Of a stretch of 64,000 nucleotides of DNA, positions 3,095 through 50,677 are shown in pieces. Each line of letters begins with the position of its first letter. Position 1 is the stretch's first letter. The notes beneath the pieces were generated by a model. It was not told the DNA's origin. It did not search any database and saw nothing but the letters and a program-made list of their open reading frames with translations. Source of the DNA: a bacterium (GTDB lineage: Bacteria > Bacteroidota > Bacteroidia > Chitinophagales > JADIYW01). The stretch is taken from assembly GCA_037189845.1 (NCBI GenBank), contig JBBCIS010000003.1, forward strand, positions 385,477 through 449,476, given 5' to 3'. The position numbers and the translations under genes were made by a program.

Positions 3095-3616
3095 GCAATT
3101 ACGATTTTTGATTGACGATTGACGATTGACGATTTCGCTGACGCAGGGAGACTCGAAACCATAAACAGGGTTGCAGAATGAAATGGTTCTACCACGAATT
3201 TAGTAGAGATTTTGTCTTATTGTGGTTCGAAAGCGTTTCGACAACAATCTTAATTGCAATCATCAAACACCGTGATTTTCTTTTTTCTTTCATACTTTTT
3301 TAGAAAAAGTATGGCAAAAATCGCGCCCGACTTTTCGGCGACCCACTTCATGCTCAATGGCTAAATCTTCTAAACTCACCACCTTGTGGGCGGTTCAAAC
3401 AGTAGAAGATTTTACGCCATTTTCGTATTAGTGGGTATCCCGCCTGCAAAGCCAAGGGCGCAGAAAAGCACAGAGATTTGGGTGTAGATATATTTGTTTT
3501 ACTCTTTGGGGCTTATCGCAGAAAATTCTTTCTCCATTAAAATAGTGGTAGAACCAATGAAATAGACTAAAACTCCCAGCTATTTTTTAGAATACGGGAA
3601 AAATATCCATTTCAAT

Positions 3617-7047: not shown

Positions 7048-10000
7048 TTATTCTTTCATCATCTCCAATTTTATCAGGCGTTTTTCGAGGTCTGAGTTGT
7101 GGGTTTTCTGAGTGCTCAGCTCGGCACCCAGGGTGTTGATGATTTGTTGCTGTTCCTGTATGGCTTTGGTGAGTACCCCTATTAGCTCCGTGGTGTTCAA
7201 TCCGAGATATTTTTCATCCAATTGGGAAACTAAGTTATAGCCTTCCATCTGGTGTGCCTGCAAATTGGATTGTACGTCCTGTGCTATAAATCCGATGGTT
7301 TTTCTTTCGGTATCCGAATTGTTATATACATATTCCACAGGCTGGAGCCGCATGACAAAATCCAATCCGGGTTTGAGGGGCTGTATATTATGCTTCAATC
7401 TTCTGTCGGAAGCATTTGTCCAGGAAGCAGCAAACATCCGGTACACGTTGTGTGCATTGTTTCCGATGGTCACTTCATTGCTCGCATTTATTGCAGAGGC
7501 CTGTGCATTATATCCTATCATGACATTATTGTCTCCCGTCACTAAAGCATCTCCGGCGGATGAACCCAGAGCCACATTGTTTGACCCTATGGTATTTCCA
7601 AGTAAGGCCTGATATCCTATAGCTGTATTCTGTCCCCCCAAAGTATTACTGACCAATGTATTTGTTCCCAATGTGACGTTCATCCCTCCTGAGCTGTTAT
7701 TTTGCAAAGAGCGAAAGCCTACGGCAGTGTTAGCATTTCCTGTGTTGATGGAAGGATTGTTTGAGCCTCTCAGCGCCCCTTTTCCTATTGCTACATTCTG
7801 ATTAATGAAAGCAGTAAGAGTATTATTTGCATAACACATAGCGCTATCCCCAATCGCAGTAGCCCCGGATCCGCGTATGTTCCTGAGTAGTGCATGCATA
7901 CCTACAGCAGTGTTCTGATTGCCGATGGTATTTTCAACAAGTGCTTCTACCCCGATAGCCGTGTTATTATTTCCCATTGTGTTTCGAAGAAGCGCACCTC
8001 TCCCGATGGCTGTATTTTGGTATCCCTCTGTGTTTTGCCAAAGTGTTCCCGACCCGATAGCAGTATTCCGGTAGCCTGTAGTATTTGCGTAAAGTGCACT
8101 TTCTCCCATTGCAGTATTAGCGTATCCGGTAGTAGTATTAAACATGGACTGATAACCCACAGCGATATTATTGTAGCCTGTATTATTTGCCGCATTGGCT
8201 GACCCCCTCAGTGCTTCATAGCCTATGGCAATGTTCTTGCTGTCAAATGAGGTAATTCTTGAATTGGCATAGTACATCGCTCTGTAGCCAATTGCAATAG
8301 TACGGGATACTGCCCTGTTGCTGTAAAGTGCTTCTACCCCGATGGCCGTATTATTATTTCCCACCGTGTTCTGATAAAGGGCCTGAAAACCGCATGCTAT
8401 ATTATTATATCCGCTTGTGTTCTGATAAAGGACCTGAGAACCGTATGCCATGTTATTATATCCGCTTGTATTCTGATAAAGGGCCTGATACCCATACACC
8501 GCATTATCATTTCCGCTTCTATTGGAAAAGAGCGACTGATACCCTGTCGCTGTATTATTATTTCCTATGTTGATTGCCGCATTGGTTGACCCTCTCAATG
8601 CTTCATAACCTACTGCAACATTATAATTTTCAAATGCAGTAACTCTGCTGCTGGTATAGTACATCGCCCTGCTACCGATAGCAGTGGCATGTGATCCGGC
8701 TACGTTGTTGTGAAGTGTCTCAAATCCTACCGCCGTATTCAGATTTCCGTCCATGTTCCGCATAAGTGCATCTCGTCCCACCACTGTATTTTCATATCCG
8801 GAATTATTATTCCAAAGAGCACCCTGCCCGAGTGCCGTATTTGAATATCCTGTTCGATTGGCCCAGAGCGTACGCTCACCGATTGCGGAGTTGGCATATC
8901 CTGTAGTATTCTCCCACATAGATTGATAGCCTACAACAGTATTATTGTAGCCCGTATTATTTACCGCATTGGTTGATCCTCTCAGTGCCTCATAACCAAT
9001 AGCGGTATTTCTGCTGTCAAACGAGGTAGCCGTTGAATTGGCATAATACATTGCCCCGCTACCGATAGCAACAGCTCTATAACCTGCCCTATTGCTGTAA
9101 AGGGACTCTGCACCGATGGCCGTATTATTATTTCCTGTAGTATTGTTGCGAAGTGCATTCATTCCAAAAGCAGAATTAGCAGTTCCTGTATTGGTCTCTA
9201 AACTTCTGTATCCCAAAGACGTATTCCTTCCTGTAGTGTCTATTCTCCCTGCTTTCTGGTTATTGACCCTGAAATTCAGCGGTACATTATCTGTCGTACC
9301 TATGAAATGTGTGCCGTCCATAGTGCCGGAATTTCCAGTGAGTGACCAATAGTTGGCCAGGGTTAAATTCTGCCAGCTTGCCACACCGTCTGCATCAGAA
9401 GTAAGGACTTTACCTGCGCCCGGTACACCACCGCGAATACGTATCTGTCCATTGATGTCCAAAGATTGGGTTGGAGTGCTGGTGCCTATCCCGACCCTGT
9501 TTCCTCCACCCTGCAATATCAAAGGTAAAAGTGTACTGCCGTCTGTGGCGATAGCATCAATAACCCCGACACCAAGAGAGCGACTGGGCATGATGCGAAC
9601 AACAGCACTGGTGGCATTAGGAGTGGTTACTGCATCCTGATCAGTTATCCAGAGTTGTTTGTTGTTGTTTCTGTTCACTCCGGCCATGATGGCAATACCG
9701 CTTGCAGCATTGCCGCTCGGGGTTACATATTCCTGTCCGCTGATGGTCAGGTTAGCCTGCCGCTGGGTGGTCTTGTTGATTTCTACGGCACCCGTATTGG
9801 CAGAAATCACTCTTCCGGCTCCTGCTCCTCCAAAATTATATGCTTCATTCAGTGTTCCTCCTCCGGTAATGGGTGTTTCCCATGTTGCTACTCCGCTTGC
9901 ATCGGAAGTGAGGACTTTTCCTCCCCCCGGTGCACCGCCCCGGATACGGACTTGTCCTACGATATCTAATTTTGCAGTAGGTGCACCAGTGCCTATTCCT

Positions 10001-10975: not shown

Positions 10976-11740
10976 TTAAATGCTCAACAAGTTACATACT
11001 TCCACTATAGCAGTATTGTTGCGTAATCCTAATCTGTTTCTGACAGCTTTCAGATGATTATTCACAGTATGTACACTGATAAATAATTTTGCTGCAATCT
11101 CGTTAACCTTCATACCTGCTGCCCAATGCCTGATACAGGACAACTCTATATCGGAAACAATTTCTTTGTTTCTTATTTTTTTCTGATCCGAAAACCAGGT
11201 ATATACATTTTCTCCGGTATTGATCCGGAACCAGTATACATCACCTTCCAGCAAATGAGTTACGTCTTTTTGATAAGACAAAAGTATCTTGGACTGTTTC
11301 TGTCCGTTTAATATCATAGGGACAACATGCCAGATCAATCTGATAGCATCTCCGCGTAAAGTTGTTGCCTTTGCCCCGCAAAAAGTGCTGCTGAAATACA
11401 TCTTTTCCTGATCGGAAAACTTTTCCATGAGTTCTTCATGCACCTTTATGCACTCACCAAGAGTTCGGATATCATCCAGGACTTTCGGATAAAACTCTTT
11501 AAAAGAATGAATACTTTCCGTTGTCTCTACTCCCCAAAACTGGTTGAAATTGGGAGTTACGTTTTCGTAATTGAGTGTGACTTTATTCAGAATCATCAAT
11601 ACGATATTATGACTCTCGGCATACTCATTTAAAAAAGCAAAATATTGCTTCAAATCGGATTCTTCTAATTTTTCAAAATCATCAATATTACTGATAGTAT
11701 TAAATATTGCTTCTGCCTTTGTAGTGATTAAAGAATTCAT
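10976..11740 (-). CDS. LuxR/GerE-family HTH transcriptional regulator with uncharacterised N-terminal domain
   Basis: C-terminal ELSCIRHWAAGMKVNEIAAKLFISVHTVNNHLKAVRNRLG is a GerE/LuxR HTH. No receiver or autoinducer-binding signature seen N-terminally. Confidence 0.75.
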   Translation of the reverse strand: MNSLITTKAEAIFNTISNIDDFEKLEESDLKQYFAFLNEYAESHNIVLMILNKVTLNYENVTPNFNQFWGVETTESIHSFKEFYPKVLDDIRTLGECIKVHEELMEKFSDQEKMYFSSTFCGAKATTLRGDAIRLIWHVVPMILNGQKQSKILLSYQKDVTHLLEGDVYWFRINTGENVYTWFSDQKKIRNKEIVSDIELSCIRHWAAGMKVNEIAAKLFISVHTVNNHLKAVRNRLGLRNNTAIVEVCNLLSI

Positions 11741-12266
11741 TGCTGTATTTCCCTGATATTATCAAAGATAAAATTTAATAACTCGTTAGCTGCTTTATCT
11801 TACAAGCAATTTTGAATCATTTCCTGCTGCCCTTTGACCACATTAATAAGCAACCAGTTTGCTTTTATCTATCAACCTGAAGGAATAGGATAACCGTTTC
11901 CTGATACGGCTCAGTGATGGTCTCTGGATGTTGAGATAGGAAGCGATGTGATAAAGTGGAAGCTGATTAAATATGTCGGGATGTCGTTTGATCAGGTTCA
12001 GATATCGCTGCTCCGTTTACCACAAAACCAAAATGTGTACAAACTGATTTCTATTGATTATAGAAATCTCCTTTATTGTACGTTCTGTATTGCCAGTATG
12101 ATAATGATTTCTCAAATTCCTCCGGAGCAAGCCCAGCGAAATGATGAAAAATCACGGATAATCTTTGATAGCCGGCATTCATGAACATTTAATTTATATT
12201 CATGAAATATATCATTATGAATAATTTATAAAAAATTACTCCTCTGAAAACAAAAGCAATTTTCCA

Positions 12267-13538
12267 TTATTTACTGATGACAAGCTTTGAAATGCTGCTC
12301 TGTCCGGCATCATCTGTCACAGTCACAAGATAAATTCCGTTTGGCGCATCCAGCTGAATTTCCTGTAGCATTTTTGTCAATCTGATTTCTTTCATCAGCT
12401 GACCGTTCATAGAGTGTATCTGTACAAGGGTCTTGGATTTTAATTCCGGAGTCTGTACTATAAAGCTTCCCTGGCTTGGATTCGGATATAGTCTGAGCGC
12501 TGTGATATTTCTGTTTTTCAACCCGGTAGTCACAGTAGTATCAGCATAATATTTGCATTGAGAATCGTATAAAAAATCTACTGCTTTTTCCAAAGCAAAT
12601 TCAGGCATCAGATCATCCACGGGATGTGCAGCACCATTTACGATGTGTTTTACAACCCGGGCACCGATGCTTTCTAATCTGGGAACATAATGCTGGGCTC
12701 CATAAAATTTACCAAGATGGCAGGCAGCAACATAGAAACATCCATGGTTATACGGTACTGACGGATCTGCATTGTGGTGTAACGCCATCACATCTACATC
12801 ATTCTTCTCTCCTATCCAGTCCACTTCAGCCAATGCGCCGCTGTCTACTATCAGATTTCTGACAGTATTGGTAGAACCGTATTGCAGATGTTCTGATGTA
12901 GTCCCTTCAAAATCACCTCCCAAAGTGGTCAGCGCCTGTCTCCATGACCCGCTCAATTCATCAGACTCATCCAGAAAAGCAGTATGAATCACTCCGATAG
13001 CTCCTGCTGACGAGCCGTATAAGGTAATGTTGTTCGTATCTATCCCAAAAGGGTTATCTGCTTCTGCAGCTGTGTACTTTAAATACCTGATAGCGCCTTT
13101 TATATCATGGACACTTCGGATAATGGCTCTGTACCAGTTGATCTTATTGGCAAAGTAAAGAATGGGAAGCCCGTCCGGATCTTCTGTTTGCTCCAGGCGA
13201 TACTGCACTGCTACTGCTACATAACCACGTTTGGAAAGCTCATTTCCCATCATTTTCATGGTACTGCCCGTTTTATCTCCGGCAACATATGCTCCGCCGT
13301 GCATCAATAAAACTACAGGTCTGACCCGCATCGTATCATCCAGTAGCTCAGGCATGTAAACATCCAGAAATAAATCCTGCTGCTTTCCTAAATTGTTGGT
13401 ATTAGATCCGTATTTCACATTGGAAATAACAGCATTTCTATCAAAAATCTTATCTCTGAATCTGGCATCGCTGCATTGTGCCTGAATAAAGTTCTGAAAA
13501 ATCAGAAAAGCTGTAACTGATAGTAACAGGTGTCTCAT
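12267..13538 (-). CDS. secreted alpha/beta-hydrolase (esterase/lipase) with T9SS C-terminal sorting domain
   Basis: Signal peptide present. LLMHGGAYVAGD (HGG oxyanion motif) and YGSSAGA (GxSxG). C-terminal ~75 aa LYPNPSQGSFIV...GIYLVTVTDDAGQ...KLVISK resembles a Por/T9SS CTD. Confidence 0.75.
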   Translation of the reverse strand: MRHLLLSVTAFLIFQNFIQAQCSDARFRDKIFDRNAVISNVKYGSNTNNLGKQQDLFLDVYMPELLDDTMRVRPVVLLMHGGAYVAGDKTGSTMKMMGNELSKRGYVAVAVQYRLEQTEDPDGLPILYFANKINWYRAIIRSVHDIKGAIRYLKYTAAEADNPFGIDTNNITLYGSSAGAIGVIHTAFLDESDELSGSWRQALTTLGGDFEGTTSEHLQYGSTNTVRNLIVDSGALAEVDWIGEKNDVDVMALHHNADPSVPYNHGCFYVAACHLGKFYGAQHYVPRLESIGARVVKHIVNGAAHPVDDLMPEFALEKAVDFLYDSQCKYYADTTVTTGLKNRNITALRLYPNPSQGSFIVQTPELKSKTLVQIHSMNGQLMKEIRLTKMLQEIQLDAPNGIYLVTVTDDAGQSSISKLVISK

Positions 13539-19518: not shown

Positions 19519-20322
19519 TTATACCGGACTATTCTTACCTTTCCTGTTGAAAGTATAGTAGACAGCCATTCCAGTGAAAAGCAGGCCTCCCACAATATTT
19601 CCGATAGTAACAATGGATTGGTTATACCACCAGTCTGCTATGGTGACATTGGCTCCGAAAAGGATGCCCGCCGGAATGACAAACATATTGACGACTGCAT
19701 GTTCAAAACCTAAAGCGAAAAAGATGAAAATAGGAATCCCTGCCGCTACTATTTTTCCTACAGTGGACTTTGATGTCATAGACATGACGACTCCCATGCA
19801 GACCATCCAGTTGCAAAGTATGGCTTTAATAAATGCTGAGACGGCTCCTGCGCTTCCATACTGCATATAGGCAATGGTTTTTTTTTCAGCAACTTTGACA
19901 ATCATTTGTTCTATCGGATCTCCGGTCTGAATTGCTCCCATCATCGATATAGCTGCCCAGTAAAATAATGCGTACAGCAAGCTACCGATGAGATTGCCCA
20001 GAAATACCCAGAACAGGTTGGAAAGCATGAGTCTGCCGGAAATCTGTTTCTCCATATATGCGATAGGAATTATTGCAAAGCTGCCAGTCACCAGCTCCAG
20101 CCCCAGCAGAACGATAATGACGAATCCTACAGGAAAAACAATGGCTCCTATCAGAGGCGTATTTGTCTGTGTAACTGCTGCGAACGCAAGTGTGACCGAT
20201 ATAGCAAGCAATGCTCCGGAAAGCATTCCCCTGATGATGAGGTCTTTGGTGGGTAATGCTGATTTTGTAAGGGCGGCACTGAGCATTGTGCCTGCAACTT
20301 CTTTGGGTGATACGTAATCCAT
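19519..20322 (-). CDS. formate/nitrite transporter family protein (likely nitrite transporter NirC-like)
   Basis: FNT-family membrane protein, 267 aa, last gene of a co-oriented nirB-nirD cluster. Confidence 0.8.
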   Translation of the reverse strand: MDYVSPKEVAGTMLSAALTKSALPTKDLIIRGMLSGALLAISVTLAFAAVTQTNTPLIGAIVFPVGFVIIVLLGLELVTGSFAIIPIAYMEKQISGRLMLSNLFWVFLGNLIGSLLYALFYWAAISMMGAIQTGDPIEQMIVKVAEKKTIAYMQYGSAGAVSAFIKAILCNWMVCMGVVMSMTSKSTVGKIVAAGIPIFIFFALGFEHAVVNMFVIPAGILFGANVTIADWWYNQSIVTIGNIVGGLLFTGMAVYYTFNRKGKNSPV

Positions 20323-20506
20323 AGTTTTTTTGTTTAAGGTTTAAGGTTTGATGTTTAAAGTTTTGCTGTCGCCCGGTGGCTGAGCAGTTCGACTACGTGG
20401 TTGTTGAGCCCAGTCGAAACACTTACTGACCACGGAGTTGGAGCCTGATTGAGTCCACGGTCCACAGACCGCCGTATTTGTCGTCTGTCATCCGTGGTCT
20501 GTTGAG

Positions 20507-20905
20507 TTAAAACTTGTAGCCTATACCTATTCCCGGATGCCACCGGCCACTGACAGCCGATGTTTTGGGATTATAGAATACAGGTAGTTGCAAAGCAAAA
20601 TGTTTATAAGAAAGCGTGAGTCCTGCTCCCAGAGACGGCATGACAAATGAATTGGATACTTCATTGTTGTCTTTTTTGAACCGCAGGGAAGGCAAGACTC
20701 CGGCTAAAAGTGTAAATGATTTCTTCTTCCACTTGATAGCGGGCCCGGTGAAATTGAGATAAGCGCCTTTATCTACATATCCGGCTATTATATATCCCTC
20801 CCAGATCGAGAATGAGATATTTTTTTCCTTTTTACTTTCTTCTTTGGTGGATTCAGCAACGACCAGCAAGGGGAGCAACATGAATAGAGTAATGATGATT
20901 TTCAT
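20507..20905 (-). CDS. small predicted outer-membrane beta-barrel protein of unknown function
   Basis: Signal peptide, alternating amphipathic strands, C-terminal GIGYKF (terminal aromatic). Embedded between nirD and the FNT gene. Confidence 0.5.
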   Translation of the reverse strand: MKIIITLFMLLPLLVVAESTKEESKKEKNISFSIWEGYIIAGYVDKGAYLNFTGPAIKWKKKSFTLLAGVLPSLRFKKDNNEVSNSFVMPSLGAGLTLSYKHFALQLPVFYNPKTSAVSGRWHPGIGIGYKF

Positions 20906-20929
20906 ACAGTTTGGTTTTGACTACAGTAA

Positions 20930-21289
20930 TTAAAAGATTCCGATATAGACGATTCCATCATCAATCTTTACGGGATAGGTTTTGATGGCACATTCATCTC
21001 CGTTCAGGCATTCTCCTGTCTGGAGTGAAAATGTTTTTTTGTGGAATGGACAAGCTACTTTGGGTACTTCTCCGTGACTACCCAGCATTCCCCTGCTGAG
21101 TGCCATTTGCTTTTTGTGGGGACATTCATTTTGAGTAGCATACCATTCATCTCTGCGGGTAAAATAGAACAGAGCTATCTGCTGATCTTCATATTTGACA
21201 CATGCGCCTCCATTTTCGATGACATCTTCTGTCCTGCAGGCTGCAAACCATGTGCTGACAGCTGTTTTCGTTTCTTTTTCTTGTATCAT
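20930..21289 (-). CDS. nirD: nitrite reductase [NAD(P)H] small subunit (Rieske-type)
   Basis: CPHKKQMALS...VACPFHKKTF Rieske CxH...CxxH; 119 aa. Confidence 0.85.
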   Translation of the reverse strand: MIQEKETKTAVSTWFAACRTEDVIENGGACVKYEDQQIALFYFTRRDEWYATQNECPHKKQMALSRGMLGSHGEVPKVACPFHKKTFSLQTGECLNGDECAIKTYPVKIDDGIVYIGIF

Positions 21290-21478
21290 GGTTGTAGTTT
21301 AAAGTTCAATGTTTTTTTAGTCCACGGTCAACAGTCCACAGATCACCGTTTTGATGATTAGTTCACAGACCGCGGTTCATCCGCCTCGACAGATCGTTTT
21401 TGCTGTTATCGTTTGCGTTGTCTGTTTTCAGTCGTCCGTTGTCTAAAGTCTTTCATCTTTTCTCTTATGTCTTGAGCA

Positions 21479-23968
21479 TTACCCCCAATTCGCAGCTCTC
21501 TTTTGCTCTCTCATCGGGTCAAATTTTACAGAAGGATCTTTCTCTTCCGTTGCGTTGACGAAGTGGCTGAATTTTTTTCTGATTTCAGGATTTTCGACTG
21601 CTGCTTTCCATTCGCATTGATAAGCACTGATGAGTGTCGCTATTTCGGCTTCTAATTCGCCTCCGATACCTAAGCTATCGTGCACAATCACATCTTTGAG
21701 ATAACTGATGCCGCCTTCGAGCTTGTTGAGCCATGGTGCAGTCCGGGTCAGCGGATCAGCTGTTTTAATGTAAAACATCAAAAATCTATCTATGTATCTG
21801 ATGCAGGTTTCACTGTCTATATCTGCTGCCAGAAGCTGTGCATGCTGGGGTTTGCTTCCTCCGTTACCGCATACATACAGGTTCCATCCTTTTTCAGTAG
21901 CAATAATTCCGAAATCTTTACCCTGTGCTTCCGCACACTCTCTGACACATCCCGAAACAGCAGATTTGAGCTTATGGGGTGCCCGGATACCTTTGTATCT
22001 GTCTTCTATCTGAATAGCAAAAGTGACGCTGTCGTGCAATCCGAATCTGCACCATGTAGAGCCTACGCAGCTTTTGACTGCACGGAGAGATTTACCGTAT
22101 GCGTGTCCGCTTTCAAACCCGGCAGCAATAAGTTCTTCCCATATATAGGGCAGGTCATTCAGATGCGCCCCGAACATATCTACCCGCTGAGCACCGGTAA
22201 TCTTGGTGTACAGATTGTATTTTTTCGCTACTTCACCTATTACAATGAGCTTCTCAGGAGTGATCTCTCCACCGGGAATTCTGGGCACTACGGAATATGT
22301 ACCGCCTTTCTGGATATTGGCTAAAAATCTGTCGTTGGTATCCTGAGAGGCATGATGCTGTTTCGCAACGACCAGGTCATTCCATGCGCTTGCCAGTATA
22401 GAACTGACTGCCGGACGGCATACTTCACAACCATCGCCGTGCCCTACACCATTTAAAACTTCGTCATATGTCCGGAAATTCTTTATTTTAACCAGGCTGA
22501 ATAACTCCTGCCTGGAAAACTGAAAATGCTCACAGATAATATTTCTGATAACTTTGCCCTGCTTTTTCAAAGTACTGTTGACAATATCTTTGACCATAGG
22601 CACACAGCCTCCGCAACCTGTGCCAGATCTGGTACATTTCTTCACTGCATCAAAATTTTCACAGCCCTGATTTACAGCATCGGCAATTTGCCCTTTGGTG
22701 ACACCTTCACAGCTACAAATCAACGCATCGTCCGGAAGCTCAAATCCATCATCAGCACCGGAGCTGTTAGATTTCACAATCAGGTTGAGCGGATTCCCTT
22801 TGATTTCTATCTTGTTTTTGTACATCTGCAAAAGCTTGTTGTATTCTTCTGCATCCCCGACCAGGCTTCCCCCAAGCAGGAATTTACCATCATTGGAGAT
22901 ATTTATTCTCTTATATATTCCGGAGAGAGTATCATTATATAAGATGCTTTCGGCCTCATTTCCGTCGATAAAGGGATCTCCGAAACTGGCAACATCTACT
23001 CCTATCAGCTTCAGCTTGGTGCTCATATCAAAGCCACTGAACTTTTTGCTCTGAGTTCTGGCCAGCTGCTGAGCTACAATTTCAGCCATTTCATACCCGG
23101 GAGCGACCAACCCGTATATAGTATTTTCATGGAGTGCACATTCTCCGATGGCAAATATTCTCGGATCGCTGGTCTGCATAGTATCATTGACAATAATACC
23201 TCCACGGGGGCCAATATCCAGCCCGCATTTTTTCGCCAGCTCATCTCTCGGTCGTATCCCTGCTGAGATGACTGCTATATCTGCTGTCAAAGTGGTTCCA
23301 TCAGAGAAAATAAGGCTATGTATGGAATCATTTCCCAGCACCGCCATAGTATTCTTATTATTGTGAGTAGTAATACCCAGTTCCTTCAGCTTTCTTTTCA
23401 GAGTATCTGAACCTTCACTGTCTATCTGTCTAGGCATCAGCCTCTGTGAAAACTCAACGATGCTGATATCTTTTATTCCTAAATCCAAGAGTGCTTTTGC
23501 TGCTTCAAGCCCTAACAGGCCTCCGCCAATGACAGCCCCGGTTTTACAGCTGCCTGCATAGCTTTTTATCATATTGAGATCTTCAATAGTCCGGTAAACA
23601 AAAACTCCCGACTTGTCTATGCCATACATATCAGGTACAAAAGGAGCGGATCCTGTGGCCATGATAAGGTAGTCATAAGAAACTTTGCATCCTTCAAAGG
23701 AGGTAATTCTCCTGTTTGCCCTGTCTATTTGCATAACAGGATCGCCCAGATGAAGGTCGATTTGATTTTCTCTGTACCACTTCATAGGTTTCATGCACAA
23801 ATCCTTTACAGTCTTTCCGGCAAAGTATTCACTCAGGTGCACTCTGTCATAAGCTGAGATCGGCTCTTCTCCAAAGACAGTCAACGCCAAATCGGGTATC
23901 TGCAATTCTGCCAGTTTCTCACAGAGCCGCTGCCCGACCATTCCATTTCCGATAATAGTAATTTTCAT
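21479..23968 (-). CDS. nirB: nitrite reductase [NAD(P)H] large subunit
   Basis: N-terminal FAD/NAD Rossmann fold (KITIIGNGMVGQRL); BFD-like [2Fe-2S] Cys cluster; C-terminal sirohaem/4Fe-4S nitrite-sulfite reductase domain (CVGSTWCRFG); 829 aa. Confidence 0.9.
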   Translation of the reverse strand: MKITIIGNGMVGQRLCEKLAELQIPDLALTVFGEEPISAYDRVHLSEYFAGKTVKDLCMKPMKWYRENQIDLHLGDPVMQIDRANRRITSFEGCKVSYDYLIMATGSAPFVPDMYGIDKSGVFVYRTIEDLNMIKSYAGSCKTGAVIGGGLLGLEAAKALLDLGIKDISIVEFSQRLMPRQIDSEGSDTLKRKLKELGITTHNNKNTMAVLGNDSIHSLIFSDGTTLTADIAVISAGIRPRDELAKKCGLDIGPRGGIIVNDTMQTSDPRIFAIGECALHENTIYGLVAPGYEMAEIVAQQLARTQSKKFSGFDMSTKLKLIGVDVASFGDPFIDGNEAESILYNDTLSGIYKRINISNDGKFLLGGSLVGDAEEYNKLLQMYKNKIEIKGNPLNLIVKSNSSGADDGFELPDDALICSCEGVTKGQIADAVNQGCENFDAVKKCTRSGTGCGGCVPMVKDIVNSTLKKQGKVIRNIICEHFQFSRQELFSLVKIKNFRTYDEVLNGVGHGDGCEVCRPAVSSILASAWNDLVVAKQHHASQDTNDRFLANIQKGGTYSVVPRIPGGEITPEKLIVIGEVAKKYNLYTKITGAQRVDMFGAHLNDLPYIWEELIAAGFESGHAYGKSLRAVKSCVGSTWCRFGLHDSVTFAIQIEDRYKGIRAPHKLKSAVSGCVRECAEAQGKDFGIIATEKGWNLYVCGNGGSKPQHAQLLAADIDSETCIRYIDRFLMFYIKTADPLTRTAPWLNKLEGGISYLKDVIVHDSLGIGGELEAEIATLISAYQCEWKAAVENPEIRKKFSHFVNATEEKDPSVKFDPMREQKRAANWG

Positions 23969-30837: not shown

Positions 30838-30890
30838 TGATTTGAGGTTAAAGACATGAGACGAGAGACAATAGACTTAAGAAGTTTAAG

Positions 30891-30950
30891 GTTTAAAGTC
30901 TAAGGTTTAAAGTTTGCTCACGCAACGATTGAAAACCTTAGACTTTAAAC
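30891..30950. promoter_or_regulatory. 18-bp perfect inverted repeat GTTTAAAGTCTAAGGTTT-N24-AAACCTTAGACTTTAAAC between the flotillin and giant-ATPase genes
   Basis: Arms at 30891-30908 and 30933-30950 are exact reverse complements. No U-tract follows on the coding (minus) strand. Adjacent direct repeats AAGGTTTAAAGT x2. Confidence 0.6.
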
Positions 30951-30962
30951 AACTTATCAGAT

Positions 30963-33038
30963 TTACGAAAGCTTTTTATTAGACAATCCGAGATTGCTGG
31001 CCATATTCAAAAGATTATTGATTAACGGCCGGTCAGAATCATCACTCTGCTGATGCATTTTGAGTAAGATGCTGGAAATCGTCAGATTCTTAATATCGTT
31101 GGTGCTGACATTGTATTTGTCAGCAAAATCTCTGATTTTATCCAGTAGATCTCCGTTGGAAGAGCCATCTCCAATCAATGCATTTTTGATATGCGTGGCA
31201 TTCTCACTTTCGTTGATTAATCTATCGAAACCTTTGGCGTTAGAAACCTGATCGACAATATTCCGGAAGAACATGGTCTCTCCACCTACGATATCTATGT
31301 TGGCTGATTTCAGTGCCTCGGAAAGGACATCTGCCTGAGCCACTGCAACATCTTTCTGGATATTGATCTGTGCAAGTGCAATATCTTTATCTTTCTGCAC
31401 AAGGATTTTGAACTCTTCGTGGTCTTTGCCAACGCCGTCCAGCTTCTTCATTGCCTCTGCTTTCTCTTCAATACCGGATGCTTCTGCCAACGCTTTCTCT
31501 TTTGTTCCTTCTGCTTCCGCAAATGCTTTTTGTTTCATCACTTCCGCTTCCATCAGACCTTCTTTGCGTTTCGCATCTGCCATTTTCTCTACTACATTCG
31601 CCTCGACGATACCCTGGCGCTCAGTTGCAGCTGCTTTTGCCATCATTACTTCTGCTTCAGATAAACCGATAGTCGCTTCCTCACGTGCCTGGGCTTCTGC
31701 AAGAATTTTCCTTGCTTCTGCTTGTTTTGTAGCTGCATCTTTACGAGCTTCTGCATCGATCAGCATTTCTTTGGCTTTTTCTTCCGCCGCCTTTTTGTCC
31801 GCTTCTGCCGCTTTCACGGTATAGATTAATTTTTCTTCTGCCTGACGGGAAGCTTCGGTGATACCGACTGTTTTCACTCTTTCCACCTCACGGAAAGCTT
31901 CAATATCTTTGATGTTCTGCTCTTCTTCGACTACGCCTTTTTCTAATTTGACGCGCTCTTTGATGACATCCTGGATGTTTTTGCGTTCGATCTCGACCGT
32001 TTTTTCTTTCTCTATCTGGGCGAGTGTGACAATTTTCTCTTTTTCTGTCTGCTCCAATAATTTGTCTTTCTCTACTCTTTCAGTCTCTACCGCATCTGTT
32101 CTCAGCTTATTTTTCTCTGCAATGATGATCTGACGGAGCTTATTTTCTTCCTGAATGGCTAATTGTTCTTCTGTACGGATTCTGACCGTTTCAGATTTTA
32201 GTCTTTCTTCTTCTCTGACTTTGAGAATTTCTGCTTCTTCCCTGGATTTAATATTGTCAATTTCTCTTTTTTGCTTCTCTTCTTTTTCAGCCATCTGACG
32301 TTCCAATTCCAGTATAGCTTCTCTGGCTTCTACATTTTGTTTTTTGATGACTTTCTCCTCTTCTCTGCGGATCAGATTGGATTTGATATTCTGAGCGGCA
32401 GTCAGTTCCGTGATCTTTTTGATACCTTCTGAATCAAGGATATTTTCTGCACTTAAAAATCTTAGTTCCGTCTGTTCTAAATAATCGATAGCACAATCAT
32501 CTAAAATATATCCATTGAGGTCAGTACCGATCACATCCAGAATCTCATCCCTGAACTCCCGACGTGCTTCATACAGCTCTATGAAATCGAATTTTTTACC
32601 CGCAGTTTTAAGTGCTTCAGAAAATTTGGCTTCAAAAACGTTATTCAGCGTATCTACATCACTGGCACGGTCGCAACCTATCACCTGCGCTACATTGATG
32701 ACGTCATCAACACTTTTGTTGACCCGTACAAAAAATGCAACTTTGATATCTGCCCGGATATTATCCTTACAAATCAAACCATCGTGTTCCATCCGGTCGA
32801 TTTGTAATTTTTTTACGGAAATATCCATTATTTCCATTTTATGCAAAATAGGAATCACGTACATACCACTGTTAAAAGCAACCTTGCTGCCTCCGACACC
32901 TGTCCTTACGATAGCCTTGCCTTGCGGAATTTTTTTGTAAAATGTCGCAAATGCAAATAGTACAACGACGATAATGAAGATCACTCCGCATATCAACAGG
33001 ATGAGTAATCCTCCCAAATTGTCAAATAATGTTCCCAT
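30963..33038 (-). CDS. flotillin-family SPFH (band 7) protein
   Basis: N-terminal TM segment; SPFH domain; ~350 aa of E/K/A/R-rich coiled coil; 691 aa. Architecture of YqiK/FloT-type flotillins. Confidence 0.85.
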   Translation of the reverse strand: MGTLFDNLGGLLILLICGVIFIIVVVLFAFATFYKKIPQGKAIVRTGVGGSKVAFNSGMYVIPILHKMEIMDISVKKLQIDRMEHDGLICKDNIRADIKVAFFVRVNKSVDDVINVAQVIGCDRASDVDTLNNVFEAKFSEALKTAGKKFDFIELYEARREFRDEILDVIGTDLNGYILDDCAIDYLEQTELRFLSAENILDSEGIKKITELTAAQNIKSNLIRREEEKVIKKQNVEAREAILELERQMAEKEEKQKREIDNIKSREEAEILKVREEERLKSETVRIRTEEQLAIQEENKLRQIIIAEKNKLRTDAVETERVEKDKLLEQTEKEKIVTLAQIEKEKTVEIERKNIQDVIKERVKLEKGVVEEEQNIKDIEAFREVERVKTVGITEASRQAEEKLIYTVKAAEADKKAAEEKAKEMLIDAEARKDAATKQAEARKILAEAQAREEATIGLSEAEVMMAKAAATERQGIVEANVVEKMADAKRKEGLMEAEVMKQKAFAEAEGTKEKALAEASGIEEKAEAMKKLDGVGKDHEEFKILVQKDKDIALAQINIQKDVAVAQADVLSEALKSANIDIVGGETMFFRNIVDQVSNAKGFDRLINESENATHIKNALIGDGSSNGDLLDKIRDFADKYNVSTNDIKNLTISSILLKMHQQSDDSDRPLINNLLNMASNLGLSNKKLS

Positions 33039-33188
33039 GAAAATTGATTTAGTTTTAAATGTTTAAGGTTTTTTTAGTTTAAAGCCGATGAGTTTCGACA
33101 GGTGGTTTCCGGATCATTTCGACTCCGCTCAATGACCTCTTCAACACTCTATAGTGTTAACAAATTCGGCAATCGTAAATTGTAATTT

Positions 33189-50335: not shown

Positions 50336-50677
50336 TCCTTATAATTCTAAGGCGAATTTATACTTATTCAATCACTTTAATAGTCACCAAAATATTATTT
50401 AGTTGTCAAAACAAGTAGTATTGAGTATTCGAACTGCTGATGAAATTGATGTCTGGACGTAAGCCTTTTCCTGAATCGTCATGTTGAACTTGATTCAGCA
50501 GCTGTACCTGAATCAGTATCTCTTTCAATCTGACAAATTCCGTGTCAGGCACTGAATGACGAATCAAACGACAACTGGCGTAAGCAAACTTTAAATCCGT
50601 GACACACTTAGAATAATCTCAGTGCCCGACGGCAAGACTTCAAACTTTAAAATGGTGGACAGTGAACAGTTGAACAT

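Follow-up and report, generated by a model that had tools for sequence, protein, structure and literature searches.

Worn palindromic heptamer elements in two intercistronic gaps of a Bacteroidota nitrite reductase operon

Introduction

Repeats with a unit of seven nucleotides have been described between the genes of several bacteria. In several cyanobacteria, hairpins formed by 7-bp STRR repeats lie between hupS and hupL; their function is unknown, and a part in transcript stability or translational coupling was proposed (PMC2670836). Beggiatoaceae, Cyanobacteria and five Bacteroidetes have TAACTGA heptamers, frequently placed directly before a start codon (MacGregor 2015, PMC4679880). Many bacteria have an excess of heptameric repeats in their intergenic DNA; these repeats are also seen as inverted arrays and differ among closely related genomes, and polymerase slippage was proposed to explain them (PMC4692102). 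Here, a stretch of 64,000 nucleotides from contig JBBCIS010000003.1 of a Bacteroidota genome (the window, to whose positions all coordinates refer unless another locus is named) was analyzed for the repeats in its nitrite reductase (nir) operon. They lie in two gaps, one between an open reading frame (ORF) of 132 amino acids and the gene of a formate/nitrite transporter (FNT; gap 1), the other between nirB and nirD (gap 2).

To our knowledge, heptanucleotide repeats have been known since 1990, and there is no agreed function or origin for them. REP elements have a classical role as 3' stem-loops stabilizing upstream mRNA, as in malE-malF. Rickettsia palindromic elements (RPE) reportedly insert in frame in genes and add residues, an observation attributed to Ogata et al. 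2000. The GTCCAC/GTGGAC elements of the nir operon are a new example of a known, mechanistically unexplained kind of repeat. That each gap carries a worn palindromic element made of heptamers is near certain. A passive stem-loop role, as one reading of what these elements do, is plausible, and for element and role taken together we lean slightly towards acceptance.

Results and Discussion

Similarity between the Two Gaps

An earlier note on this DNA had described a degenerate repeat of about 60 bp in both gaps. The sequences it quoted lie where it placed them, and pairwise alignment of the gaps, a check it had proposed, gave a shared block that exceeded chance in shuffle tests and had no other match in the 64 kb. 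The 16-mer GTCCACAGACCGCCGT with at most three mismatches matched three times, always in the two gaps, compared with 0.11 matches in shuffled sequence; the 11-mer AGTCCACGGTC occurred exactly once per gap and nowhere else in the window. In the gaps (373 nt together), 4 of the 11 window copies of GTCCAC and 3 of the 6 copies of CCACGG were located. On the mRNA strand, the best gapped alignment paired CAAA-ACGGTGATCTGTGGAC[TGTTGAC]CGTGGACT with CAAATACGGCGGTCTGTG[-------]GACCGTGGACT. Its score of 32 was reached by 8 of 2000 dinucleotide shuffles (19.1 ± 2.9). The copies are thus separated by an indel of exactly 7 nt (...CTGTGGAC[TGTTGAC]CGTGGACT vs. ...CTGTG[-------]GACCGTGGACT).

Chance or base composition could be invoked for this similarity, as the shared block is short, its ungapped alignment score was matched by 6 of 1000 dinucleotide shuffles, and both gaps are richer in GC than their surroundings (0.49 in gap 1 and 0.42 in gap 2, compared with 0.30–0.38 in the other co-directional gaps of this genome). 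However, the count of 16-mer matches, the rarity of the gapped score among shuffles, the match of a second, independent arm in 0 of 100 shuffles, the heptamer register and the family evidence given below all speak against this explanation, which these tests have already refuted and which we regard as hardly credible.

The Heptamer Elements

What recurs in the gaps is shorter than had been proposed, namely three to four tandem heptamers (about 21–28 nt) that make up one arm of a palindrome. The repeat unit reads GTCCACN on the plus strand and NGTGGAC on the nir mRNA. The elements comprise the following parts, where R1 denotes a covariance model introduced below and the left arms are given as read on the plus strand:

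20450-20502: element A in gap 1, imperfect heptamer palindrome, from R1 match and fold
20452-20472: left arm of element A, AGTCCAC GGTCCAC AGACCGC
20473-20479: loop of element A, CGTATTT, 7 nt
20480-20502: right arm of element A, GTCGTCT GTCATCC GTGGTCT GT
20425-20436, plus strand: extra partial unit of the left-arm type, ACTGACCACGGA, complementary to 20491-20502 and offering an alternative outer mRNA stem
21317-21453: element B in gap 2, decayed palindrome, from R1 match
21319-21346: left arm of element B, AGTCCAC GGTCAAC AGTCCAC AGATCAC, followed by a 70-nt interior
21360-21403, plus strand: interior of element B, with a third partial array AGTTCAC AGACCGC GG, a GCGG/CCGC hairpin and ACAGATCGTTTTTG
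21417-21446: right arm of element B, degenerate, GTTGTCT GTTTTCA GTCGTCC GTTGTCT AA
30881-30956: third, AT-rich element outside the operon, well preserved, with AGTTTAA / TTAAACY units, from R1 match, fold and TRF

The register of seven was evident from sliding autocorrelation over the 64 kb, in which lag 7 was the main short-period signal reaching 0.6; none of the other lags from 4 to 12 reached this value except in one 11-nt repeat region. The window contained nine lag-7 segments: four fall within the two gaps, and other intergenic regions account for at least three more. Tandem GTYMAMN dimers numbered five (0.62 in shuffles), with three of the five in the gaps. Lag 7, the dimers, the 7-nt indel and the metagenome spacers reported below all point to tandem 7-nt units in both gaps. 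Both copies lie between called ORFs, and inverted arrays able to form a hairpin are present in element A and, weakly, in element B.

Element A begins 4 nt past the stop codon of the 132-aa ORF. As RNA of the operon strand, its 57-nt core had a predicted folding energy of −20.3 kcal/mol (z = −4.1), and 1 of 200 shuffles folded as well. The right arm matched the array consensus (WCTGTSG)x4 with four mismatches, and any such match was found in 0 of 100 shuffled windows; since this arm had entered no search design, it represents an independent test of the consensus. The inverted repeat GACCACGGA / TCCGTGGTC that had been noticed in gap 1 was also recovered (20425-20436 vs. 20491-20502, 12 nt, 92% complementary), and when the gap is folded as a whole, its unit at 20425-20436 is used in the minimum-free-energy structure.

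Element B starts 25 nt past the nirB stop codon and ends 27 nt before the ATG of nirD. It contains the third of the 16-mer matches (21361-21376), and ACAGATCGTTTTTG at 21390-21403 resembles the loop ACAGATCGTTTTTC of an element in the metagenome locus L152. Its right arm fell short of the array consensus. Element A is a significant hairpin and element B a decayed one.

Downstream of the third element, after about 42–44 nt, comes the ATG (30837) of a 1615-aa DUF3686/AAA gene. TRF reported period 7 at 30882-30915, and the 80-nt stretch 30879-30958 was predicted to form an RNA hairpin of −28.7 kcal/mol (z = −6.6). As the two nir copies are more alike than either is to this element and differ by one unit, their simplest history would be that they arose by local duplication and then drifted apart through slippage of units and point decay.

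The Repeat Family in Other Bacteria

Metagenome contigs were scanned with TCTGTGGAC-N(0-7)-CGTGGACT, and at least 120 loci were obtained. Spacers of 7 nt (34 times) and 0 nt (29 times) dominated, every other length being seen 6–14 times, so that the metagenome matches stand largely in heptamer register. Arrays of at least three units held about one third of the matches and were intergenic in 31 of 44 cases (70%), compared with 32% of the isolated matches; array orientation relative to the flanking genes was unbiased among these loci. A typical metagenome element is an inverted pair, (AGTCCAC)x4 - loop - (TGTGGAC/TGTCGAC)x4, that forms a hairpin of 66–96 nt in predicted folds. The element of locus L133 reached −48.7 kcal/mol with z = −9.4, and that of L152 z = −5.9.

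Covariance model R1 was built on nine aligned metagenome elements, none of them from the window. RNAalifold chose a register-shifted helix on the family alignment owing to the repetitive arms, and the full 30-bp structure was therefore supplied by hand. With filters off, R1 matched 20450-20502 in the window with 29.7 bits (E = 8e-7; E = 1.4e-6 for element A with default filters), element B with 23.1 and 22.2 bits (E = 1e-4 and 2e-4; found with default filters too) and 30881-30956 with 21.2 bits (E = 4e-4), the pattern behind the training set having come from the window's own arm, which makes these E-values partly circular. The next-best window match had 11 bits (E = 0.6). Independent of the window-arm pattern are the spacer-length distribution, the z-score of the element A hairpin and the second arm of element A. 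Further elements outside the training set were matched in the metagenome loci with 25–62 bits; thus, decayed copies like those of the window are common.

One family member allowed a close comparison with the nir operon. Locus L096 is a Cytophagales contig (LeuC about 90% identical to those of Ohtaekwangia and Chryseolinea), and its element occupies the 88-nt leuD-leuB spacer of a leuC-leuD-leuB operon, a placement comparable to that of the nir elements. Sequence comparison thus showed that elements of this kind, built on an identical unit, exist in other bacteria, including the spacer of a Bacteroidota leu operon. Relatives of L096 were collected via LeuC proteins (92–95% identical), and their leu operons carried heptamer arrays in every intercistronic spacer, many with inverted arms:

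L096, 4690-6612: leu operon spacers with heptamer arrays
L205, 4417-6352: leu operon spacers with heptamer arrays
L206, 1692-3595: leu operon spacers with heptamer arrays
L207, 4411-6513: leu operon spacers with heptamer arrays

The units varied by relative and by gap and included GTCCAC/GTCGAC, TAACTGA-like, CCATGGA, GTCAATG and others. The comparison of these sequences indicates that the 7-nt register stays while the unit sequence turns over fast. The density of lag-7 segments was 0.14 per kb in the window, 0.23 in the Cytophagales leu loci and 0.024 in loci of Chitinophagaceae and Sphingobacteriaceae.

Family copies were also found inside genes. Locus L152, with best homologues in metagenome-assembled genomes of Ca. 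Omnitrophota, has four to five elements in 1.4 kb (11222-12633). Two element-bearing regions lie in frame in its SDR epimerase gene, which encodes 378 aa, compared with 311–314 aa in homologues without insertions; the two insertions of this protein coincide with the elements. In locus L138, the elements (9317-9392 and 12690-12931) sit within the reading frames of valS (peptide STVHSPQSTEKIKSVDRGLSSV) and nadC. The in-frame elements of both loci add about 25–40 residues at loops.

These copies raise the possibility that the nir elements are decayed members of mobile palindromic GTCCAC/GTCGAC arrays spread across phyla (Bacteroidota and an Omnitrophota-like contig), a family that would colonize intercistronic spacers as well as protein loops in frame, as in valS, nadC and the SDR epimerase gene. 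We entertain this tentatively and consider it unlikely. If true, the system would be REPIN- or RPE-like, and the 7-nt register would reflect a mobilizing or array-generating enzyme rather than simple slippage. No paper on GTCCAC/GTGGACT as a named repeat was found in the open-access literature. The results bear on the family more than on the nir locus, and the wider family, lying outside the window, is the more interesting lead for its cross-phylum occurrence, its in-frame copies in essential genes and its persistent register with fast turnover. The GTCCAC/GTCGAC arrays in Bacteroidota spacers and Omnitrophota-like ORFs, the turnover of leu spacer units with arrays kept, and the nir copies exactly one unit apart make the heptamer question more tractable by comparative genomics.

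Comparison with Known Repeat Systems

The nir elements share with STRR repeats the tandem 7-nt units, an intra-operon intergenic site between subunit genes of one enzyme and the capacity to form hairpins. They differ in their host, a member of the Bacteroidota rather than a heterocystous cyanobacterium, in their dominant unit, GTCCACN/GTCGACN rather than CCCCAGT, TTGGTCA or CAACAGT, and in their short arrays of three to four units in inverted pairs. CAACAGT does occur at 21330-21336, which we take to be the STRR3 unit of Mazel et al. 1990. With this single unit and a host of Chitinophagaceae/Bacteroidota type, assignment to the strict cyanobacterial STRR was rejected.

The heptamer register, intergenic position, 7-nt indels (between strains in the TAACTGA case) and presence in Bacteroidetes are common to TAACTGA repeats and the nir elements; moreover, TAACTGA-like arrays stand in the Cytophagales leu spacers, and AAACCTT leaders lie right upstream of start codons in the window. 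The nir elements have another unit and are palindromic pairs, whereas the TAACTGA sets are almost all direct repeats, and the copy in gap 1 is nearer to the upstream stop codon than to the start codon. The GGGAATC / GGGGAYT repeats of Xanthomonas and Nostoc (PMC4692102) are likewise intergenic heptameric simple sequence repeats, sometimes as inverted repeats capable of stem-loops, with strong variation of length and sequence among closely related genomes, but they are G-rich and quadruplex-capable, while the nir units have no G-runs.

The earlier note had also considered an inserted REP/BIME-like repeat, and it is this part of its interpretation that held, since a palindromic family element stands in each gap; the operon-specific RNA element that it had named beside it did not. 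As in REP, BIME and REPIN sequences of Enterobacteria and Pseudomonas, the palindromes are imperfect and intercistronic or intergenic, inverted doublets form a larger hairpin, and copies are clustered. In the strict sense the REP/BIME label fails on the heptanucleotide units, which place the elements nearer to STRR and TAACTGA repeats. The arms are heptamer arrays and not a single conserved palindrome of 20–40 nt; no GTAG head was visible in the nine-element consensus; and no RAYT (IS200/IS605-type) transposase was seen, and none was searched for. As for copy number, hundreds of copies being the mark of REP-type families, three elements were counted in the about 81 kb of this genome that the analysis covered.

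Rickettsia palindromic elements resemble the family through the in-frame insertions of L152 and L138, a feature of these copies and not of the window copies, which are intergenic; the unit-based architecture and the phyla differ as well. MITE sequences are defined by terminal inverted repeats plus a target-site duplication. Inverted arms are present here, and the pentamer TTGAG stands as a direct repeat at both sides of element A (20449-20453 and 20502-20506), where either a target-site duplication or chance may account for it. The ends of element B and of the metagenome elements are palindromic, TAGTC...GACTA, so that a TA duplication is inseparable from the palindrome.

The Host Operon

The operon is encoded on the minus strand in the order nirB, a 189-nt gap, nirD, a 24-nt gap, the 132-aa ORF, a 184-nt gap and the FNT gene:

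21479-23968, minus strand: nirB, with Pyr_redox_2, Fer2_BFD and NIR_SIR domains (Pfam)
21290-21478: nirB-nirD gap (gap 2), 189 nt
20930-21289, minus strand: nirD, with Rieske_2 (Pfam)
20507-20905, minus strand: 132-aa ORF without Pfam match, its homologues being named outer-membrane beta-barrel by their sources
20323-20506: ORF-FNT gap (gap 1), 184 nt
19519-20322, minus strand: FNT formate/nitrite transporter gene, from ORF and Pfam
19527-19510, operon strand: terminator-like hairpin with T-run after FNT, from terminator scan

The terminator scan of the operon strand found no site inside either gap and a single one, after FNT; the four genes from nirB to FNT therefore probably share one transcript. 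A search for small ORFs in both gaps yielded short, unconvincing ones, and the sigma-70 promoter scan of the gaps used a model that is uninformative for Bacteroidota. A Crp-type regulator is encoded beside the operon (Pfam). The host proteins are most similar to those of Chitinophagaceae and other Bacteroidota, with best identities elsewhere of about 80% for NirD and at most 59% for the 132-aa ORF.

Orthologous nir Loci

Eighty loci with NirD relatives (69–81% identity) from Chitinophagaceae, Sphingobacteriaceae and other Bacteroidota were compared. Matches to the window motifs in these loci stayed at chance level in searches with exact motifs, blastn-short and nhmmer, and R1 found nothing at E ≤ 1 in 945 kb of orthologous loci and flanks. 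The conservation that an operon-specific RNA element would have suggested was therefore not observed. The nirB-nirD gap had been called unusually long, which comparison did not bear out: it measured 16–46 nt in Pedobacter and Sphingobacterium and commonly 105–206 nt in Chitinophagaceae-type relatives (about a dozen measured loci), with larger gaps implied in a few others of this type. The long gap is thus a lineage trait. Gene order varied as well, being nirD-FNT-barrel in many relatives compared with nirD-barrel-FNT in the window.

In the Chitinophagaceae-type relatives, a 16-nt motif, AACGATTGCTTGCCAT, begins 35–47 nt upstream of the nirB and nirD ATGs (e.g., L007 3340-3355 and L009 5864-5879). 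Extra copies precede nirD by 80–130 nt, and in L076 one copy stands 44 nt before a 433-aa ORF. A position weight matrix of the motif gave 63 matches in 1.93 Mb, nearly all at these sites and on the operon strand. The loci are L001, L003, L004, L006, L007, L009, L018, L022, L030, L040, L043, L044, L046, L047, L066, L067, L070, L076, L078 and L080. AACGATTGCTTGCCAT looks like a nitrogen-assimilation promoter or operator duplicated within the operon. The nir cluster of the window lacks this motif, and its sequence upstream of nirB (GC 0.19) resembles neither gap; on these two counts, an internal promoter or operator shared with nirB was rejected for the window.

Possible Role of the Elements

The elements would be co-transcribed with the operon and, on the mRNA, would fold into stem-loops directly behind the 3' ends of nirB and the 132-aa ORF. 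Their most likely part would be a passive one, in which they hinder 3'->5' decay or keep the cistrons uncoupled as spacers, and the A-rich, unstructured nirD and FNT leaders would stay free for translation initiation; in the predicted folds, both elements leave these leaders unpaired. By analogy with REP elements, this arrangement is what would be expected of passive 3' stem-loops slowing the decay of the upstream segment.

Several points weigh against such a role, or against the family assignment on which it builds. The 30-bp consensus helix was 84.7% paired and showed no covariation beyond shuffles in nine elements; the palindromic symmetry thus stems from the unit sequence and not from compensatory change, and the pairing may not be under selection. 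The fold of element B was weak (z = −1.8, with about 4% of shuffles as good), as were the whole-gap folds (z = −1.9 and −1.2). The E-values of R1 in the window carry the circularity mentioned above, and the count that bears on dispersal across the genome is three elements matched by the model, beside nine lag-7 segments of various units, in about 81 kb of this genome; the flanks L082 and L084 (about 17.5 kb more) contained no further copies. No close relative of the host was found among 5.8 billion proteins searched. The hairpin role itself is suggested by position and predicted folding.

The chief rival of a stem-loop role holds that the elements are neutral or selfish by-products of replication slippage or of some mobilizing activity, arising wherever a spacer tolerates them and having no effect on nir expression. 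The lack of covariation in the family helix, the heavy decay of element B, the fast turnover seen in the differing leu spacer units of relatives with 92–95% identical LeuC, the arrays' lack of orientation preference relative to flanking genes and the absence of the nir element from the 80 orthologous loci all agree with it, and polymerase slippage is a published hypothesis for the heptamer excess (PMC4692102). However, the arrays persist in all leu spacers despite the turnover, a hint that having an array is under some constraint; the nir elements both begin 4–25 nt past the preceding stop codon and do not encroach on the A-rich leaders; and the gaps are higher in GC than other spacers. We regard this rival as a serious possibility, though a doubtful one.

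A further alternative is that the arrays serve as a protein-binding platform tuning the translation or transcription of nirD and FNT; the binder could be a cold-shock or S1-type single-strand binding protein on the mRNA or a DNA-binding regulator. Several copies of one short unit would suit multimeric binding, and a symmetry that comes from the unit rather than from compensatory pairing fits a sequence-specific reader. The motif AACGATTGCTTGCCAT upstream of nirB and nirD in Chitinophagaceae relatives indicates that internal regulatory sites do occur in this gap. For TAACTGA repeats, binding by S1, Csp or Csr was proposed, and CspB binds heptamer repeats (MacGregor, PMC4679880). On the other hand, the distance to the downstream ATG is inconsistent (about 30 nt for nirD vs. 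about 130 nt for FNT), the sequence upstream of nirB has no counterpart, and the GTCCAC-type unit is shared by operons of unrelated function and is found within ORFs of other phyla as well. No candidate binder is encoded beside the operon except the Crp-type regulator, and Crp-family regulators bind palindromes of another type. Such a platform thus appears improbable.

An attenuator, processing site or small RNA, as the earlier note had also envisaged, received little support. Two features would suit a nitrate- or nitrite-responsive attenuator, riboswitch or small RNA, namely the intra-operon position and the alternative pairings in gap 1, where GACCACGG has two possible partners, CCGUGGUC and, if one mismatch is allowed, CCGUGGAC. 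However, Rfam gave no match for the region even at E ≤ 10, nor for the whole window at the gathering score; neither gap has a hairpin with a U-tract on the operon strand; the whole-gap folds are unexceptional; the element is unconserved in the 80 orthologous loci; and the same element is found in a leu operon and in other phyla. With covariation lacking too, the transcription attenuator/riboswitch class was rejected. The elements are not a nitrite/nitrate-specific attenuator, riboswitch or operator, and an RNA switch or small RNA of the nir operon, largely refuted, retains very little probability.

For annotation, the nirB-nirD and ORF-FNT spacers are best described as repeat elements and not as riboswitch, attenuator or small RNA. 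Any effect on nir expression would probably be generic, e.g., on the stability of mRNA segments.

Further Heptamer Arrays in the Window

The A-rich leaders are themselves repetitive. Arrays of (AAACCTT/AAACTTT)n lie directly upstream of the FNT gene, of nirD and of the gene starting at 33038, one of them being:

20332-20363, minus strand: (CTTAAAC / AAACCTT)n, A-rich leader immediately before the FNT start codon; TRF period 7, 4.6 copies

This array could be aligned to 30838-30962 and 33039-33188, and leaders related to it precede nirD and two other genes.

In gap 1, a second module (20387-20420) consists of the hairpin GUUUCGACU...AGUCGAAC followed by GCUCAGCCACCGGGCGACAGC; a loose counterpart, CGGAGTCGAAATGATCCGGAAACCACCTGTCG, lies upstream of the gene at 33038 (33039-33188). 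Elsewhere in the window, an intergenic three-unit array, GTGGACA GTGAACA GTTGAAC, is present at 50655-50675 (region 50654-50677), and a perfect intergenic (GATTGAC)x3.6 array, which can also be read as ACGATTG units, occupies 3110-3134.

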